A stretch of DNA of 4,954 bases from a virus (Duplodnaviria; Heunggongvirae; Uroviricota; Caudoviricetes): the IMG/VR virus record IMGVR_UViG_2579779052_000005; one strand, given 5' to 3'. A model generated the notes under the pieces. It worked only from the letters and a program-made list of their open reading frames with translations, did no database searches and had not been told where the DNA came from. The stretch's first letter is position 1. Each line of letters begins with the position of its first letter. The position numbers and the translations under genes are program-made. Positions 1 to 4,954 of the stretch are shown here, piece after piece.

Positions 1-294
1 GTTGCGCACGTATTCGGTGAACGCACTATGGCGACGCTGGGGCGTCTTATGAGCCTGCTGTCACCCTTTGACGTGGTGATATGGATGACGGATGGCTGGC
101 CGCTGTATGAATCCCGCCTGAAGGGAAAGCTGCACGTAATCAGCAAGCGATATACGCAGCGAATTGAGCGGCATAACCTGAATCTGAGGCAGCACCTGGC
201 ACGGCTGGGACGGAAGTCGCTGTCGTTCTCAAAATCGGTGGAGCTGCATGACAAAGTCATCGGGCATTATCTGAACATAAAACACTATCAATAA
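1..294 (+). CDS. insB: IS1 transposase InsB reading frame, C-terminal part (5'-truncated by window edge)
   Basis: ORF track 28..294 is the Met-initiated tail; the frame is open from base 1 and matches InsB as I recall it. Stop TAA at 292-294. Confidence 0.93.
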
Positions 295-309
295 GTTGGA
301 GTCATTACC
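287..309. repeat. IS1 right terminal inverted repeat (IRR)
   Basis: atcaataagttggagtcattacc; its reverse complement ggtaatgactccaacttattgat matches the IRL at 4472-4494 at 18 of 23 positions, including the shared core ccaactta-tgat. Confidence 0.9.
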
Positions 310-521
310 ACCAATCTGTTATATTATATATAGCTGCGTGGAATCATAATATCATATATTTTGACTGGCATGTTTACCAAATTTAAGTTGCATCTCAATG
401 GTTTCTTCAGCGTAAACAGAGTTTTTATACAAACTGACACTCTGGGTATCATAGTGTAGTTTTTACGATTGTAAATATCCTGTATGCAGGAACTCATCCT
501 TTTGGATGATATCGCATACAA

Positions 522-1481
522 TTAATTTACCATCAGTCTTAGAGCCAGTTCGTCCGGATAGGGATCGAAGTAATTCTGTGTAAGCAAGTAATCATTAGGA
601 TACTCACCCAGATAATGCTTCAGCAGAGTCAACGGCGCAAGAAGAGGTAATGTGCCAGAACGATAGTTAAGTATAACCTCGCTCAACTCTTTACGCTGGC
701 GTGTACTTAAGTAGTTACTAAAATACCCCTGTATATGCATCAGCACATTCGTGTGATTTTTACGTGATGCAGGTTTTCTGAGAATCGCCATCAGCTTATC
801 ACGATACACCTCAAAGTATGATTCAAGATCCGCCCACTCGTGTATTGCAGCCACAAATGGTCCCATATCTTTATAGCCTGTCTGACTATGCGCCAACAAC
901 TGAAGCTTATAACGACTATGAAAAGCCAATAACTCTCTTCTTGATAATTTCTCCTTGTAAAGGTGATTGAGCTCATGCAAAGCAAAAACTCTTTCAACAA
1001 AATTCTCACGAAGCACTGGATCATGTAATCGCCCATCCTCTTCAACCGGTAGCCAGGAAAACTTTTCCATCAAAGTGCTCGTAAATAGTCCCACTCCATC
1101 TTTACGACCTCGATTACCATTTTCATCATAGACACGCACGCGCTCCATGCCACAGCTGGGAGATTTAGCACAAACCACAAACCCCGATACATCCTTTAAT
1201 TTGTCCATATAAGAACGACTAAACTCTGTCATTCTCTCTGTCACATCCTCATTCTGGTCGTGGCTGAAACACATCCGTATATTTCCTTGCGTCGAGCGCA
1301 CAAGACGTAGAGCAGGACGCGGAACTGGCAGCCCTATAGCCATTTCCGGACATACTGGTCTGAATGTTACCCATTCCACTAATTTGTCCATTAAAAAGTC
1401 AGCTCTTTTGTGACCACCATCAAAACGAACAGCAGAACCGGCCAAACAACCGCTGATTCCAATCACAGGTTTTTTTATCAT
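522..1481 (-). CDS. DUF523 (TudS-like 2-thiouracil desulfurase domain) / DUF1722 (YbgA-like) fusion protein, 319 aa
   Basis: The N-terminus (IGISGCLAGSAVRFDGGHKR ... VCPEMAIGLPVP ... VVCAKSPSCG) resembles DUF523/TudS with Cys at 12, 44 and 104. The C-terminal half (HSQTGY...HTNVLMHIQGYF...YRSGTLPLLAPLTLLKHYL...YLLTQNYFDPYPDELALR) resembles DUF1722/YbgA. GGAGG lies just upstream of the ATG at 1481, though the spacing is short. Recognition is from memory, not a search. Confidence 0.8.
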   Translation of the reverse strand: MIKKPVIGISGCLAGSAVRFDGGHKRADFLMDKLVEWVTFRPVCPEMAIGLPVPRPALRLVRSTQGNIRMCFSHDQNEDVTERMTEFSRSYMDKLKDVSGFVVCAKSPSCGMERVRVYDENGNRGRKDGVGLFTSTLMEKFSWLPVEEDGRLHDPVLRENFVERVFALHELNHLYKEKLSRRELLAFHSRYKLQLLAHSQTGYKDMGPFVAAIHEWADLESYFEVYRDKLMAILRKPASRKNHTNVLMHIQGYFSNYLSTRQRKELSEVILNYRSGTLPLLAPLTLLKHYLGEYPNDYLLTQNYFDPYPDELALRLMVN

Positions 1482-1673
1482 ATCCTCCCCCTTGACTAAT
1501 TCATTAACACATAAACTGTGTAGTGCACGGAATAAATTGCCTTTCTGGCGTCATCACTGACAATTTTTCTGTTATGGACTATTCCTAATATAGTATGAAA
1601 GTTCTTTAAGTGATCGGTCGTAATCATCTATCTTTCATACTTACTCTCAACTATCAAAAGTACAGGATTTATT

Positions 1674-2198
1674 ATGAAGTTATGGCCTGTGTTGACTGGC
1701 ATTGCGCTCTCTTTCACTCTTATAGCATGTAAGGCCCCGACACCACCTAAAGGTGTGCAGCCGATTACAAATTTTGACGCCAACCGCTACCTCGGAAAAT
1801 GGTATGAAATAGCTCGCCTCGAGAACCGGTTCGAACGTGGTCTGGAACAGGTCAGCGCTACTTATGGAAAACGGAACGACGGAGGGATTCGTGTACTTAA
1901 CCGTGGATACGATCCAACGAAAAATAAATGGAGCGAGAGCGAAGGTAAAGCATACTTTACTGGAGATACTAAAACTGCAGCGTTGAAGGTTTCGTTTTTT
2001 GGCCCCTTCTATGGTGGCTATAATGTAATCAAACTGGATGATGAGTATAAGTATGCTCTTGTCAGTGGTCCGAACAGAGAATACCTATGGATTCTGGCAA
2101 GGACCTCAACTATTCCAGATAAAGTAAAAGCAGACTATGTGCGAACCGCTCAAAAGTTGGGATTCAATGTCAATGAATTATTATGGGTTAAACAATAA
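1674..2198 (+). CDS. blc: Blc-family outer-membrane lipoprotein (bacterial lipocalin), 174 aa
   Basis: The translation aligns along its whole length with E. coli Blc as I recall it (shared blocks NFDA.RYLG.WYEIAR...RFERGLE.V.ATY...SEGKAYFTG...AALKVSFFGPFYGGYNVI.LD.EY..ALV.GP.R.YLWIL.RT), at roughly 60% identity. Lipoprotein signal peptide with lipobox LIAC (Cys19) and Lys at +2, which predicts outer-membrane sorting. AGGA lies 7 nt upstream of the ATG. Confidence 0.9.
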   Translation: MKLWPVLTGIALSFTLIACKAPTPPKGVQPITNFDANRYLGKWYEIARLENRFERGLEQVSATYGKRNDGGIRVLNRGYDPTKNKWSESEGKAYFTGDTKTAALKVSFFGPFYGGYNVIKLDDEYKYALVSGPNREYLWILARTSTIPDKVKADYVRTAQKLGFNVNELLWVKQ

Positions 2199-2226
2199 AA
2201 TCCCTACCCGAAATGATACTTATTAG

Positions 2227-2253
2227 AAAAAAACCAGCCTTTGGGGAGGCTGG
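2227..2253 (-). terminator. Rho-independent terminator acting on minus-strand transcripts (between convergent quuD and blc-like genes)
   Basis: Perfect 7-bp inverted repeat ccagcct (2234-2240) / aggctgg (2247-2253) with a 6-nt loop. On the minus strand the hairpin is followed directly by a run of 7 U (complement of aaaaaaa at 2227-2233). On the plus strand it is followed by cuaaauc, so it is a weak terminator at best for blc. Confidence 0.6.
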
Positions 2254-2353
2254 CTAAATCAGGAAACAAGCTGTTATATGATAATAACTACGTTGCGATT
2301 CCAACATTTAAAATGTTAGACTAATGACAATCAGACAGCAACTTTTCCTTTAA

Positions 2354-2731
2354 TTATTTCGAACAATCAGCATCCATCTCCAATCGGAGATCCAACACCA
2401 TCAGCATACCCTCCACTACGCCCTCAGCTTTCTGGAGCATCCTGCCAACCCAACAATCAGATCGCCCATGCTTACGTGCAAGCGCCATAAAAGTCATGCC
2501 GCCGACATAATAGTCCACCAATAAATCATGCAAATCGCTGTTGTTCTTTTTCAGACGGGCCATGCACCCGCAAATGATCATCGCGTCATCGTCACAACAT
2601 TGTGGGCGAGATTTTACTTTTGAAGGAATTAATCCCTTAAAACCGGCGGCAATGGACGACCAGGTCACATCTTCATGATTATTAGCCGCCCACGCTCCCC
2701 AACGCTCAAGAACCATCTGAATATCACGCAT
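2354..2731 (-). CDS. quuD: Lambdoid prophage late-gene antiterminator Q (QuuD-like), 125 aa
   Basis: Translation [88 protein letters not shown]... matches DLP12 QuuD as I recall it. The ORF track's N-terminal extension MWSKL comes from a TTG; the likely true start is the ATG at 2731-2729, with GGAG 8 nt upstream. Confidence 0.88.
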
Positions 2732-2816
2732 CAACTTACTCCACAAAAATCAGACCAGAACGCCAATTACAAGCAAAAATCAACAAAACAGTATTAGTTG
2801 ATTGTTATCTCTGACT

Positions 2817-2954
2817 TCATACTCCTGCTCCTGTCAGGGTTTTGGCGTAATTCTTCAGTATTCGGTAATCGGTCAAAACAGAACCGGGAAAATGATATAA
2901 GTGCAGGCGCACCCAGCGGCGGCGAAGACGTTCTGCCATATAAGACTCAAACAT
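2817..2954 (-). CDS. ylcG: YlcG-like small prophage protein, 45 aa (alternative internal start at 2939 gives 40 aa)
   Basis: Not in the ORF track (too short). Hand translation of the minus strand gives [45 protein letters not shown]. The ATG at 2954-2952 overlaps the rusA stop (TGATG). Size and position between rusA and quuD match ylcG in DLP12; the sequence itself is not verified from memory. Confidence 0.5.
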   Translation of the reverse strand: MFESYMAERLRRRWVRLHLYHFPGSVLTDYRILKNYAKTLTGAGV

Positions 2955-3316
2955 CATTCATCTCCCAGTTCAGTGATGGTCAGCTCCAGCTTCCCACCTT
3001 TGGTAACGGGCATCTTCACAACACGGTAATCAACGACCTGAACATCATCCAGCCAGAAACCTGCTTTGGTAAGTGCGTCAAAAGCAGCTTTTTGCAGATT
3101 ATCCAGGTCACGGCGACGGCGATCCGGCATGTGACACTCAATGCGGATTTTCACAGGAATAGCCAGGCCGATATCCAGCATTGCGTTTTTAATGATTCGG
3201 GCGACGTTATCGCGGTATGCCTGCCCCTCTGCGCTGATGTGCGTGCGCCCGCGATTATGGCGGTAATAGCGATTATTGCTCGGAGGCCAGGGTAATGTGA
3301 TGCTGTAGGTATTCAC
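2954..3316 (-). CDS. rusA: Holliday-junction resolvase RusA (crossover junction endodeoxyribonuclease), 120 aa
   Basis: Translation [108 protein letters not shown]... is near-identical to E. coli RusA as I recall it. Asp70, Asp72 and Asp91 are present. GTG start at 3316 overlaps the ybcO stop (GTGA). Confidence 0.93.
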
Positions 3317-3603
3317 GCCTTAATAACCCCCTCTTTCAGCCAGATAACCTGTGTTCTCGCCATATCTTCCAGCGCGCATTCTTTTGCATACTCAGCATCG
3401 ACAAAATGTGTGCGGCGGTCGATTTCGTCGTGACAGGCAGAACATGCAATGGTGGCAATCAGGTCTGGCGGTTTGATACCGGTACCGCACAATCCAGCCA
3501 GCCGGATATGTGCCAGTACAGACGTCTCAGAATTGCCATTACATACGCCAGGGATTCTTACCTGGCATTCCCGACCACGCGCTGCTTTTCTCAAATCAGC
3601 CAT
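3313..3603 (-). CDS. ybcO: YbcO (DUF1364 family, putative Cys-rich nuclease), 96 aa
   Basis: Translation [96 protein letters not shown] matches DLP12 YbcO. The ORF track starts 13 codons upstream, but the ATG at 3603-3601 is preceded by AGGAGG at a 5-nt spacing (minus strand gcaAGGAGGaatcATG). Confidence 0.88.
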
Positions 3604-3766
3604 GATTCCTCCTTGCTGCCAGTCGCAACCATTTTTTATCAACCAGGCTGGCGGTATACCCTAGCAGTGTTGGTATTTCGGATGGCTTCAGCTCAGGCTT
3701 ACGCTTACGACGATTTGGTACTCTGTAGATGTGTCCGTTCATGACCCGAATAAGCGGTGTAGTCAT
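3596..3766 (-). CDS. ninE: NinE-family small phage protein, 56 aa
   Basis: Not in the ORF track. Hand translation gives [56 protein letters not shown]. The ATG overlaps the ybcN stop (TAATG) and the 3' end overlaps the ybcO start by 8 nt (ATGGCTGA). Position between ybcN and ybcO fits nin-region synteny. Confidence 0.75.
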   Translation of the reverse strand: MTTPLIRVMNGHIYRVPNRRKRKPELKPSEIPTLLGYTASLVDKKWLRLAARRNHG

Positions 3767-4221
3767 TACGCCTCCTGCTTGTCGCGCAGCAGCTGGAACT
3801 CGCAGCTCTGCGGAATAGTCAGGCGGCAGCCAATATTCATCGCCCAGGCTTCAACCTTACACAGGAAGACATACATCTCTCCGGTATCAAGATCGGAGGT
3901 ATGGCGTAACGACTGGATCGTAGTGACTTCGCCGGTTACGACATCAACCAGGTCCTTGGTTTCATAACCGAGGTATGTGTGTTTGAGAGCATCTTTTACC
4001 CATGCTGCAGTAGCGAACGATTCCCCCCTGCTGATGAGGTACTCACTGATTTCGCTGTACCACATGTGGCTGAGTGCATTCTGGGAAAGACTGCGTCTTT
4101 CGCGCCACGGTTTAAGCACCATGCGAAAGCATTTGCCGTCCTCCAGATAAGGCTGGATCTGCTGACCGATAGCGGTGAAGTTACCGCGATGTAATTTGAT
4201 GCCGTCTTGTGGGAGGTTCAC
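3766..4221 (-). CDS. ybcN: YbcN (DLP12-type prophage DNA base-flipping protein), 151 aa
   Basis: Translation [66 protein letters not shown]... matches E. coli YbcN as I recall it. GTG start at 4221 with GGAGGT 5 nt upstream. Confidence 0.9.
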
Positions 4222-4319
4222 GCTTCACCTCCGCAGAGGTCAAACGCTGGATGCAAAAAATCGCAGGTGCATTTCTGCATCTGTGAAGGGAGAAGAGAGT
4301 TTAGATTGTATGTGCGCAT
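4218..4319 (-). CDS. ylcH: YlcH-like small prophage protein, 33 aa
   Basis: Not in the ORF track. Hand translation gives [33 protein letters not shown]. Its stop overlaps the ybcN GTG start (GTGA). Size and position upstream of ybcN fit DLP12 ylcH; the sequence is not verified from memory. Confidence 0.45.
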
Positions 4320-4374
4320 AAACGTCCCCGTTTAGCGCAGAAGTCACCGGAGTTGTTCAGGCTCCGATGACATG

Positions 4375-4403
4375 ATTATGGCGAGTTGATTATGGAAAAT
4401 CAA
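4375..4403 (-). promoter_or_regulatory. Candidate sigma70 promoter for the ylcH-ybcN-ninE-ybcO-rusA-ylcG-quuD gene string
   Basis: On the minus strand: TTGATT (4403-4398), a 17-nt spacer, then CATAAT (4380-4375), about 55 nt upstream of the ylcH ATG. Pattern match only. Confidence 0.25.
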
Positions 4404-4471
4404 ATTAGTACAAATCACCACTGAAGCGTAAATTTTCCAGTTTGTTACGGTGAAAATTGATTTGCTGTGCG

Positions 4472-4494
4472 GGTGATGCTGCCAACTTACTGAT
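4472..4494. repeat. IS1 left terminal inverted repeat (IRL)
   Basis: ggtgatgctgccaacttactgat; imperfect inverted repeat of the IRR at 287-309. Confidence 0.9.
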
Positions 4495-4526
4495 TTAGTG
4501 TATGATGGTGTTTTTGAGGTGCTCCA

Positions 4527-4802
4527 GTGGCTTCTGTTTCTATCAGCTGTCCCTCCTGTTCAGCTACTGACGGGGTGGTGCGTAACGGCAAAAGCACTGC
4601 CGGACATCAGCGCTATCTCTGCTCTCACTGCCGTAAAACATGGCAACTGCAGTTCACTTACACCGCTTCTCAACCCGGTACGCACCAGAAAATCATTGAT
4701 ATGGCCATGAATGGCGTTGGATGCCGGGCAACCGCCCGCATTATGGGCGTTGGCCTCAACACGATTTTCCGCCATTTAAAAAACTCAGGCCGCAGTCGGT
4801 AA
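4527..4802 (+). CDS. insA: IS1 InsA (transposition inhibitor / DNA-binding protein), 91 aa
   Basis: Translation [91 protein letters not shown] matches InsA with its zinc-finger-like CxxC...CxxC N-terminus. Confidence 0.95.
4778..4784 (+). other. IS1 programmed -1 ribosomal frameshift site (A6C slippery heptamer)
   Basis: aaaaaac at 4778-4784, lying in the insA zero frame as tta-aaa-aac, 16 nt before the insA stop. Confidence 0.8.
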
Positions 4803-4954
4803 CCTCGCGCATACAACCGGGCAGTGATGTGATTGTCTGCGCTGAAATGGACGAACAGTGGGGCTACGTCGGTGCTAAATCACGTCAGCGCTGGCTGTTT
4901 TACGCGTATGACAGGATACGGAAGACGGTTGTTGCGCACGTTTTCGGTGAACGC
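4778..4954 (+). CDS. insB: IS1 insB' reading frame, 5' part (-1 frame relative to insA; 3'-truncated by window edge)
   Basis: The -1 frame from the slippery site reads [60 protein letters not shown], matching InsB and running into the same InsB segment seen at the start of the window. It has no start codon of its own and is expressed as an InsAB' fusion. Confidence 0.85.

Follow-up and report, generated by a model that had tools for sequence, protein, structure and literature searches.

An IS1-bounded nin-to-Q segment with lipocalin and RudS cargo, very probably the middle part of an eroding lambdoid prophage of Escherichia coli

Introduction

Seven genes of the nin-to-Q interval, of the kind known from the K-12 prophage DLP12, lie here between two partial copies of IS1, and the question that they raise is whether such a block is what is left of a prophage, a unit moved by its insertion sequences, or a part of a phage that the host has kept. 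The window analysed (the whole stretch of DNA, 4,954 nt) consists of a unique non-IS1 segment at positions 310–4471 between IS1 parts at 1–309 and 4472–4954. Its source contig ends within IS1 at both ends, and for the wider context we relied on the closest complete genomes. The analyses presented below lead us to conclude that the window is very probably the middle part of a defective lambdoid E. coli prophage under erosion by insertion sequences. The retained DNA would belong to the right arm, running from a small nin gene through ylcH–ybcN–ninE–ybcO–rusA–ylcG to Q and on into the moron slot ahead of the lysis cassette. Each component falls in a previously described family. Of the 5426 complete E. 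coli genomes analysed, 2305 cover at least 80% of the nin–Q block, and 446 cover at least 80% of the whole window.

Results and Discussion

The nin-to-Q genes

The module shows the one-strand gene order with overlapping or abutting frames and the high protein identity that characterize lambdoid nin–Q modules of the DLP12/phage-82 type, so that the match in gene order and proteins claimed in a sequence-only reading of this DNA is borne out (seven genes, 85–96% protein identity, and 93.8% ungapped DNA identity over 2372–4404, 2033 bp). All genes are on the minus strand, and identity counts are given against the K-12 proteins with the K-12 length as denominator. From the upstream end, they are the ylcH ORF (4218–4319, 33 aa, 29/33 identical); ybcN (3766–4221, 151 aa, 141/151), encoding a recombination mediator of the Orf/NinB family (NCBIfam PRK09741, 275 bits; phrog_72), the YbcN protein having been characterized as a member of the Orf family (PMC4118853); ninE (3596–3766, 56 aa, 54/56; NCBIfam PRK09689, 140 bits); ybcO (3313–3603, 96 aa, 91/96; PF07102, phrog_131), a DUF1364 protein and putative HNH-like nuclease; rusA (2954–3316, 120 aa, 114/120), encoding the Holliday-junction resolvase; ylcG (2817–2957, 46 aa, 39/46; NCBIfam NF033498); and Q (2354–2731, 125 aa, ATG start, 106/127 identical to QuuD). 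None of the seven frames contains an internal stop, and both rusA and Q are intact. RusA has the fold and profile of its family (PF05866; NCBIfam PRK09786, 275 bits; E 1.5e-77 to PDB 1Q8R) and retains the three catalytic aspartates of E. coli RusA (D70, D72 and D91), as well as K76.

Pfam, NCBIfam and PHROGs together name six of the seven proteins. The exception is ylcH, which finds no family match in these three collections and differs from two relatives by five non-synonymous and no synonymous codon changes; it is doubtful whether this ORF is coding. Within ylcH, a tR2-like terminator (4279–4262) was considered and rejected, the fold being weak (z −1.8) and its form not conserved in K-12.

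Upstream of ylcH, positions 4405–4471 (minus strand) are the 3′-terminal 67 nt of a small nin-region gene of 204 nt (WP_087898273.1) cut by IS1. This stretch is absent from K-12, from phage IdasGreatGrand and from MS6198, and has no match in the phage collection; it is 100% identical in 23 complete E. coli genomes, in 22 of which a hypothetical-protein CDS is annotated there, and the intact gene is seen in 14EC033, in an O8:H8 strain and in strain 100416. The ybcM gene would be expected at this place only if the K-12 layout applied (ybcM–ybcL–ybcK–emrE), whereas in the present lineage two small nin genes are followed by ren–P–O.

IS1 insertion and loss of the early region

The left IS1 part (1–309, plus strand; ORF 28–294) comprises the end of insB and the right inverted repeat, ...AAGTTGGAGTCATTACC, and is 100% identical to the IS1B copies of CUWW06, the closest genome. 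The sequence-only reading had made no mention of this second copy at the other edge of the window. Phage DNA resumes behind it with the right-hand copy of a 9-bp target-site duplication, ACCAATCTG (310–318). In CUWW06 this IS1 is flanked by the same 9-bp duplication, and its two flanks both map to IdasGreatGrand with a 9-bp overlap (L002 8001–8009); it is a simple insertion that duplicated 9 bp of its target. Beyond it, phage DNA continues in CUWW06 with an HTH gene and 89 bp of the holin as far as a third IS1. No more of the holin than these 89 bp is left in the closest complete genomes, and structural genes are lacking between the third IS1 and ykgL.

The right IS1 part (4472–4954, plus strand; insA at 4527–4802, with Pfam InsA domains) is of another nature. 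Its left inverted repeat, GGTGATGCTGCCAACTTACTGAT, begins at 4472, 4471 being the last non-IS1 base, and lies 152 bp from the ylcH start codon, in agreement with the distance of about 150 bp estimated earlier. Target duplication is absent around this copy in CUWW06 (tgctgtgcg versus cagaagtct), and in the closest complete genomes its far side adjoins kil–gam–bet–exo–int, the immunity and replication region (cI/cro/O/P) being missing and replaced by IS1. The right IS1 is a true deletion junction at which about 6.3 kb has been removed (ren, P, O and cII/cro/cI-like genes). The description of the locus as a decayed prophage fragment with intact rusA and Q thus holds, given the full frames and the loss of immunity and replication genes in the closest genomes. 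Of the abrupt stop that had been claimed on both sides, the upstream one is real, whereas downstream of Q there is none, since positions 310–4404 are collinear with IdasGreatGrand and MS6198 (97.3–97.9%). Nor is the block without neighbours, as had been stated: past the left IS1 come the HTH gene and holin stub, and past the right one recombination genes and an integrase.

Three strains show three decay states of one prophage, and so provide a small worked example of stepwise erosion by IS1. Strain 100416 still has cI/cro/O/P/ren; 14EC033 has IS1 in place of 5604 bp; and CUWW06 and the window have IS1 in place of 6266 bp, a deletion that exceeds that of 14EC033 by 662 bp and shares its right junction. 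The nin–Q block is identical bar at most one base across this series. CUWW06 matches 310–4471 without mismatch, and 14EC033 matches 1–4471 with one; as the 12 differences from CUWW06 are all confined to the final 139 bp (right IS1, 4816–4954), the source of the window may be another strain, or that end may be a consensus of IS1 copies. Very probably, one IS1 made a clean insertion between RudS and its neighbour, giving the 9-bp duplication; a second took the place of the immunity and replication region (ren, P, O and the cII/cro/cI-like genes); and a later IS1-adjacent deletion of 662 bp brought this copy to its present distance from ylcH.

Two IS1 copies in the same orientation around 4.16 kb might instead be taken as a composite transposon of the Tn9 type, or as a translocatable circle, that moves rusA, Q, the lipocalin gene and the RudS gene, and the two ends of the window indeed fall on the same IS1 coordinate and overlap by 24 bp, so that it comprises exactly one IS1-equivalent plus the segment, as would be the case for a circular product or for a cycle in an assembly graph. 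We regard this as extremely unlikely. The outer flanks of the IS1 pair do not match (ACCAATCTG versus cagaagtct) and the left IS1 of CUWW06 has its own 9-bp duplication on both sides, so that the two copies did not come in together as one element, and on this target-duplication evidence the composite transposon is rejected. In addition, the DNA between them runs collinearly with the phage sequence outside the pair on either side, and among the 5426 complete genomes the arrangement is confined to a single locus (seen in CUWW06 and, longer by 662 bp, in 14EC033); two flanking IS1 copies are found as in Tn9, but neither a shared target duplication nor multiple loci. As to the circle, the overlapping ends carry a mismatch, and a short-read contig entering a collapsed repeat is the simpler explanation.

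The position of the eroding prophage also bears on whether the segment could be DLP12 itself, rearranged at the argU locus. In 14EC033 the integrase and exo–bet–gam–kil lie just past the right IS1, and the integrase of the remnant borders on a tRNA-Thr gene next to proA and not on argU/fimZ, so that in this strain the remnant does not occupy the location proper to DLP12 (argU, between fimZ and ompT). The same gene order and the 93.8% DNA identity to K-12 DLP12 would suit identity with DLP12, as would the same nin–Q–cargo arrangement in the argU prophage of MS6198; yet the similarity to K-12 DLP12 stops at 4404 and at 2372 (18 nt short of the Q stop codon), and CUWW06 has three places matching the nin–Q block, so that further copies exist elsewhere in the genome. 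The segment is almost certainly not DLP12.

The Q antiterminator and its downstream signals

Q belongs to the Q21/Q933W family, as indicated by a match to PF06530 over profile residues 1–118 of 118 (173 bits, cutoff 26) and by similarity to the Q21 structures 6P18 and 6JNX (E 1.9e-8). It is identical to Q of phage IdasGreatGrand at 125 of 125 residues, and this identity indirectly supports antitermination activity, so that the allele is probably functional. On the same strand, 99 bp downstream of the Q stop, a terminator scan identified an intrinsic terminator hairpin (2225–2255, minus strand; a 9-bp stem followed by seven T), the fold of 2220–2310 reaching −24 kcal/mol (z −3.7). Stem and loop are invariant in four relatives, the T-run of phage 1H12 having one additional T. 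From its position, this hairpin is a candidate for tR′, the terminator that Q would override.

Between Q and this hairpin we tentatively place a candidate late promoter pR′ (2313–2341, minus strand: TTGCTG and TAACAT 17 nt apart, the spacer having direct repeats that contain GTC). Its layout resembles that of the curated phage 21 pR′; however, identity anchored on the −35 is 13/36 (shuffle p ~0.12), and neither TGAGCA Q-binding repeats nor a clear pause element of the −10 type between +2 and +8 is seen in the candidate region, for which reasons the assignment stays tentative and phage 21 pR′ was rejected as a template for the late promoter. A generic promoter scan did not list the candidate. 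Among four relatives the region downstream of Q has a mean column identity of 97%, a similarity too high to decide on a promoter, and the differences of 1H12 cluster in the candidate stretch, which is a mild argument against it. A paQ-type CII site (TTGYN6TTGY) antisense to Q was likewise rejected, the single match being no better than chance and falling on the wrong strand. A scan against Rfam returned nothing at gathering score and a tRNA scan no tRNA genes; in phage 21 and the Stx phages, by contrast, tRNA genes lie 3′ of Q.

Cargo genes between Q and the lysis cassette

Two genes follow. The first (1674–2198, plus strand) encodes a Blc-like outer-membrane lipocalin lipoprotein with the lipobox LIAC (PF08212; NCBIfam PRK10477, 313 bits; phrog_2809 matched over its full length); its strand is opposite to late transcription, and it has the same position in phages and prophages. 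The second (522–1481, minus strand), co-directional with late transcription and annotated 'YbgA family protein', encodes a tRNA 4-thiouridine desulfidase of the RudS type, a family defined by a TudS domain fused to DUF1722 and by three cluster-binding cysteines (PMC11417400). The protein shows this fusion (Pfam PF04463 and PF08349; phrog_3275 matched over its full length), is identical at 297 of 319 residues to phage 1H12 gp66 (RudS_vir), and keeps the three cysteines (Cys12, Cys44 and Cys110). The gene for RudS_vir is one of a set of RudS genes that were cloned for overexpression in E. coli, and RudS genes, when overexpressed, lower tRNA s4U and the UVA-induced growth delay (PMC11417400).

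Because the related phages and MS6198 have the lipocalin and RudS genes between Q and the holin, this cargo fills the slot held by nmpC in DLP12 and does not replace lysis genes. Lipocalin and RudS are the usual cargo of the present phage lineage. An AT-rich block in place of lysis or porin genes had been proposed; the region is moderately AT-rich (GC 0.38–0.46 over 200–2400 versus 0.50–0.53 over 3000–4400) and the porin slot is right, but the replacement of lysis genes is not. A RudS-type desulfidase in a late-operon moron slot is an item of wider interest, although the protein family is already published. The significance of the locus is mainly one of annotation, in that the boundaries of the remnant are corrected and the supposed foreign cargo becomes native phage cargo.

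Expression and possible function

By analogy with characterized relatives, YbcN would act as an Orf-type recombination mediator and RusA would resolve Holliday junctions, while Q would load onto RNA polymerase at a late promoter just 3′ of its own gene; the Q-loaded polymerase would then pass the terminator at 2255–2225 into RudS and, in an intact phage, into the lysis genes. Since pR has been lost with the remainder of the early region, the module most likely is without a dedicated promoter, and would be silent or weakly expressed. Expression of rusA in K-12 DLP12 requires an inserted upstream promoter (PMC4118853). A promoter scan places a promoter-like site upstream of ylcH at 4403–4375, and outward transcription from IS1 into the module may occur.

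An alternative view is that the module is no debris but serves the host, domesticated and under selection, in which case IS1 or an internal promoter would drive Q, Q would drive RudS through pR′–tR′, and RusA would serve as a back-up resolvase. All nine frames are intact although neighbouring regions are deleted; Q, the terminator and RudS are contiguous and co-directional; the promoter-like site lies upstream of ylcH; and overexpressed RudS genes have the effects on tRNA s4U and UVA-induced growth delay described above (PMC11417400). The segment is, however, identical or one base apart among the three decaying copies, leaving no time for frame decay, so that the intactness of the frames is uninformative on selection; the copy of this prophage in strain 100416 no longer has RudS; and the natural promoter pR is deleted. 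We therefore give domestication only the slightest probability, and suggest that the intact frames reflect the recency of the decay. A bolder reading, in which the segment is either a host-kept Q→pR′/tR′→RudS cassette tuning tRNA s4U or an IS1-mobilized excising circle, the window ends meeting at the same IS1 coordinate, is very unlikely; if true, the cassette would be fed by an IS1-derived or internal promoter.

Comparison with known systems

The eroded prophage described here is most readily compared with K-12 DLP12 (b4588–b0551), which has the same seven genes in the same order and with the same frame overlaps, all of the same length except Q (125 aa here versus 127 aa). Both are IS-ridden defective lambdoid prophages, and here, as in DLP12, rusA most likely has no proper promoter. 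DLP12 is located at argU, whereas the closest relatives of the present remnant are at tRNA-Thr beside proA, and the last Q residues and everything downstream differ (nmpC in DLP12, lipocalin and RudS here). The cargo arrangement is instead that of a group of phages and one full prophage: positions 310–4404 are collinear without gaps with phage IdasGreatGrand (PP925829; 97.3%), where holin, endolysin, spanin and terminase come after the cargo, and with the full prophage of MS6198 at argU (97.9%), both of which carry the same lipocalin and YbgA/RudS genes between Q and holin. The order Q–lipocalin–RudS–HTH–holin is common to these two and to phage 1H12 (NC_049947), whose Q, lipocalin and RudS proteins are 93–97% identical to those of the window, and lambdoid phages of the Lambda_ev series also carry the lipocalin–RudS cargo. 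IdasGreatGrand, 1H12 and the Lambda_ev phages are complete, with immunity, replication, lysis and morphogenesis genes, which the window lineage has lost to IS1.

With RudS_vir (1H12 gp66) the present RudS shares its length of 319 aa, 93% identity, both domains and the three cysteines, but it resides in a defective prophage. The late switch resembles that of phage 21 in the Q family (PF06530) and in having an intrinsic terminator close behind Q; phage 21 Q is longer (162 aa versus 125 aa) and only residues 8–90 align, the candidate promoter has no significant similarity to the pR′ of 21, and morons, not tRNA genes, come after the terminator. Finally, the locus resembles a Tn9-type composite in having two direct-orientation IS1 copies around a few kb of passenger DNA, and differs from it in the lack of a shared target duplication, in the left IS1 having a duplication of its own, and in having no second location.

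Results

The seven frames of the nin-Q block adjoin or overlap one another on the minus strand (ORF reading): ylcH (4218–4319), ybcN (3766–4221), ninE (3596–3766), ybcO (3313–3603), rusA (2954–3316), ylcG (2817–2957) and Q (2354–2731). They lie in the unique DNA (310–4471, including the interval 2354–4471), which is enclosed by portions of two IS1 copies of like orientation: at 1–309 a 3' portion with the right inverted repeat and the end of insB, and at 4472–4954 a 5' portion with insA and the left inverted repeat. DLP12, the cryptic lambdoid prophage of Escherichia coli K-12, is annotated with the same seven genes in identical order, and BLAST aligns it with 2372–4404 as a single ungapped match at 93.8% identity; with the agreeing family names, this bears out the DLP12-like gene order and proteins proposed in the sequence-only reading, which had also placed IS1 about 150 bp upstream of ylcH (152 bp separate the ylcH start from IS1). 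Counted over K-12 protein length, the residues identical to K-12 are 29/33 in YlcH, 141/151 in YbcN, 54/56 in NinE, 91/96 in YbcO, 114/120 in RusA, 39/46 in YlcG and 106/127 in Q. Six of the seven products keep the K-12 length, the exception being Q (125 aa versus 127), and internal stops are absent from all seven.

Family searches name Q (PF06530, 173 bits), RusA (PF05866 and NCBIfam PRK09786), YbcO (PF07102), NinE (PRK09689), YbcN (PRK09741 and the PHROG for NinB/Orf) and YlcG (NF033498); YlcH has no match in the Pfam, NCBIfam or PHROG libraries. Codon differences between ylcH and two relatives comprise 0 synonymous and 5 non-synonymous changes, and the annotated 33-aa ylcH may be non-protein-coding. 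RusA, whose family comprises Holliday-junction resolvases, aligns with the E. coli RusA of known structure (E 1.5e-77) and retains D70, D72, D91 and K76. YbcN belongs to the Orf-type recombination mediators (PMC4118853). Over residues 8–90, Q is related to two structures of Q21, 6P18 and 6JNX (E 1.9e-8), and so falls into the Q21/Q933W family in the sense of the Yin et al. preprint; because it is identical (125/125) to Q of Escherichia phage IdasGreatGrand, the gene very probably encodes a functional Q.

An abrupt end of the block downstream of Q, as claimed previously, was not found: a phage collection search showed that 310–4404 is gaplessly collinear with IdasGreatGrand at 97.3% identity, and only the likeness to K-12 DLP12 stops, at 2372 near the Q stop, at a mosaic joint of the ordinary lambdoid kind. 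RudS, lipocalin and Q show 99–100% protein identity to IdasGreatGrand (310–2800 side) versus about 85–98% for the nin genes ylcG to ylcH (2800–4404 side), a contrast that points to a recombination joint near the ylcG–Q boundary. Downstream of Q lie a Blc-like lipocalin lipoprotein gene on the plus strand (1674–2198; PF08212, NCBIfam PRK10477, full-length phrog_2809) and, on the minus strand, a gene for a 319-aa RudS-type TudS + DUF1722 protein (522–1481; 'YbgA family protein'; domain search, full-length phrog_3275), TudS being a 2-thiouracil desulfurase domain. With 297/319 residues (93%) identical to phage 1H12 gp66 (RudS_vir) and Cys12, Cys44 and Cys110 retained, the 319-aa product is predicted to be a RudS-type tRNA 4-thiouridine desulfidase. 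The part of PMC11417400 drawn on here defines RudS enzymes as tRNA 4-thiouridine desulfidases, includes RudS_vir (1H12 gp66) in the set of RudS genes that were cloned and then overexpressed in E. coli, and mentions the phage solely as its source, without discussing a phage role.

The block downstream of Q has a GC content of 0.38–0.46 versus 0.50–0.53 in the comparison region. IdasGreatGrand carries, in order, Q, lipocalin, the 319-aa gene, a 243-aa gene (annotated in E. coli genomes as an HTH-domain protein), holin, endolysin, spanin and terminase, and the Q–lipocalin–319-aa block recurs in 1H12, in about ten 'Lambda_ev' phages and in a complete-looking prophage at argU of E. coli MS6198. Since these collinear phages and the prophage carry the same genes, the AT-rich block is native cargo occupying the moron slot that separates Q from the lysis cassette; it has not taken the place of the lysis genes, one of the two options in the earlier description. 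RudS occupies this moron slot in the late operon of a common lambdoid lineage. That Q and RudS constitute a domesticated cassette seems very improbable, given that RudS has been lost from the same prophage in E. coli strain 100416.

Statements on the wider locus are drawn from near-identical complete genomes, the source contig ending inside IS1 on both sides; the non-IS1 DNA (310–4471) has zero mismatches to E. coli CUWW06 and one to 14EC033. In CUWW06 the left IS1 has ACCAATCTG on both sides and its flanks map to overlapping IdasGreatGrand positions (...8009 and 8001...), which identifies it as a simple insertion that duplicated 9 bp of target. Farther out come the HTH gene and 89 bp of holin sequence, after which a third IS1 links the remnant to ykgL. 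The right IS1 lacks a target duplication (tgctgtgcg versus cagaagtct in the CUWW06 flanks), and on its far side are kil-gam-bet-exo, smaller early genes and the integrase. The block is therefore not 'without neighbours', as had been stated; an integrase is present and lysis is reduced to the holin piece. The strand layout fits a lambda map that lacks only its middle.

The same prophage is found in strain 100416, where the nin-Q block matches that of the window at 100% identity; this copy retains ren, P, O, cII-, cro- and cI-like genes plus two accessory genes. In 14EC033, 5604 bp of the ren-to-cI-like region are replaced by IS1; in CUWW06 and the window 6266 bp are replaced, with the same right-hand junction, and the extra 662 bp lost adjoin the left end of IS1, as an IS1-promoted adjacent deletion would leave them. 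Positions 4405–4471 are the 3'-terminal 67 nt of a 204-nt small nin gene seen intact in 14EC033, an O8:H8 strain and 100416 (a CDS is annotated over the 67 nt in 22/23 genomes holding them); with this gene upstream of ylcH in the lineage, ybcM is not the neighbour to be expected there, contrary to the first reading. Three complete genomes thus hold three decay states of one prophage: in 100416 immunity and replication are retained and IS5/IS1 cut after the lipocalin gene, and the CUWW06 integrase is split by IS2. The stop-free frames and the deleted middle agree with the description as a piece of decayed prophage in which rusA and Q are intact. The integrase of the 14EC033 remnant adjoins a tRNA-Thr gene and proA, and this differing integration site contradicts the notion, scarcely credible, that the remnant is DLP12 itself.

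Window positions 1–24 and 4931–4954 share one IS1 coordinate, overlapping by 24 bp with one mismatch (A at 12, T at 4942); 309 + 483 − 24 = 768 bp, exactly one IS1. The matching ends suggest a short-read contig or assembly-graph cycle entering a collapsed IS1 from both sides. A Tn9-like composite transposon formed by the IS1 pair and the segment between would likewise have two direct IS1 copies, and the window begins and finishes at one IS1 coordinate; we nevertheless consider it most unlikely, since a separate duplication brackets the left IS1, the sequences outside the pair do not match each other, the arrangement is at one locus only in complete E. coli genomes, and the overlapping ends are more simply those of a short-read contig in a collapsed repeat. 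The 12 differences from CUWW06 are all confined to the terminal 139 bp of the right IS1 (4816–4954, 8.6% divergence), its first 344 bp being identical; the divergent part represents either one mosaic isoform of IS1 or several copies merged into a consensus. In a right-junction search the best match reached at least 99% identity in 111 records; as the non-IS1 part of the query is covered in CUWW06 alone, these are presumably copies of IS1 similar to this isoform. The exact right-hand junction is found in CUWW06 only, among 5426 complete genomes.

Discussion

The finding is real and its decayed-prophage core was read correctly; what was said about the boundary downstream of Q, about the cargo and ybcM, and about missing neighbours needs correcting. 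The nin-Q remnant and its parts are already known: every protein has a named family, that of the cargo enzyme is characterised, IS-mediated prophage decay is textbook, and at least 80% of the nin-Q block is covered in 2305/5426 complete E. coli genomes (of the whole window, in 446/5426). Since the copies in the three decaying strains are at most one base apart, the intact frames reflect recent decay and are no evidence of selection.

Q-family proteins are late-gene antiterminators that load at a Q-binding element in pR', after which polymerase ignores the downstream terminator (Yin et al. preprint). A strong intrinsic terminator on the Q strand (2255–2225), 99 bp after the Q stop, is taken by its position as a candidate tR'. 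The candidate pR' (2341–2313, Q strand; TTGCTG, 17 nt, TAACAT; GTC repeats within the spacer) is laid out like the curated pR' of phage 21 but does not resemble it in sequence (13/36, p about 0.12), and differences from 1H12 cluster in this stretch. At 2273–2281 stands ATATAACAG, found also downstream of quuD in K-12 DLP12 (about 10410–10420 of its record) in unrelated surroundings; the two occurrences may reflect a common late-promoter or pause element, or chance. In the intact phage, Q-modified polymerase would run antisense across the lipocalin gene and then sense across RudS and the HTH gene to the lysis genes. With pR and the remaining early region deleted in the remnant, the nin-Q module would probably have no dedicated promoter; rusA in DLP12 is known to lack one (PMC4118853).

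In these phages the gene for the 243-aa HTH-domain protein invariably follows RudS (13662–14393 in CUWW06, 7130–7861 in IdasGreatGrand; just outside the window). In Salmonella SPI-2, orf319 (STM1389, named RudS_ST in PMC11417400) adjoins a regulator gene, orf242, so that chromosome and phage may have exchanged the pair as one unit. In DLP12 the slot between Q and the lysis cassette is occupied by nmpC, whereas the lineage of the window has lipocalin and RudS there.
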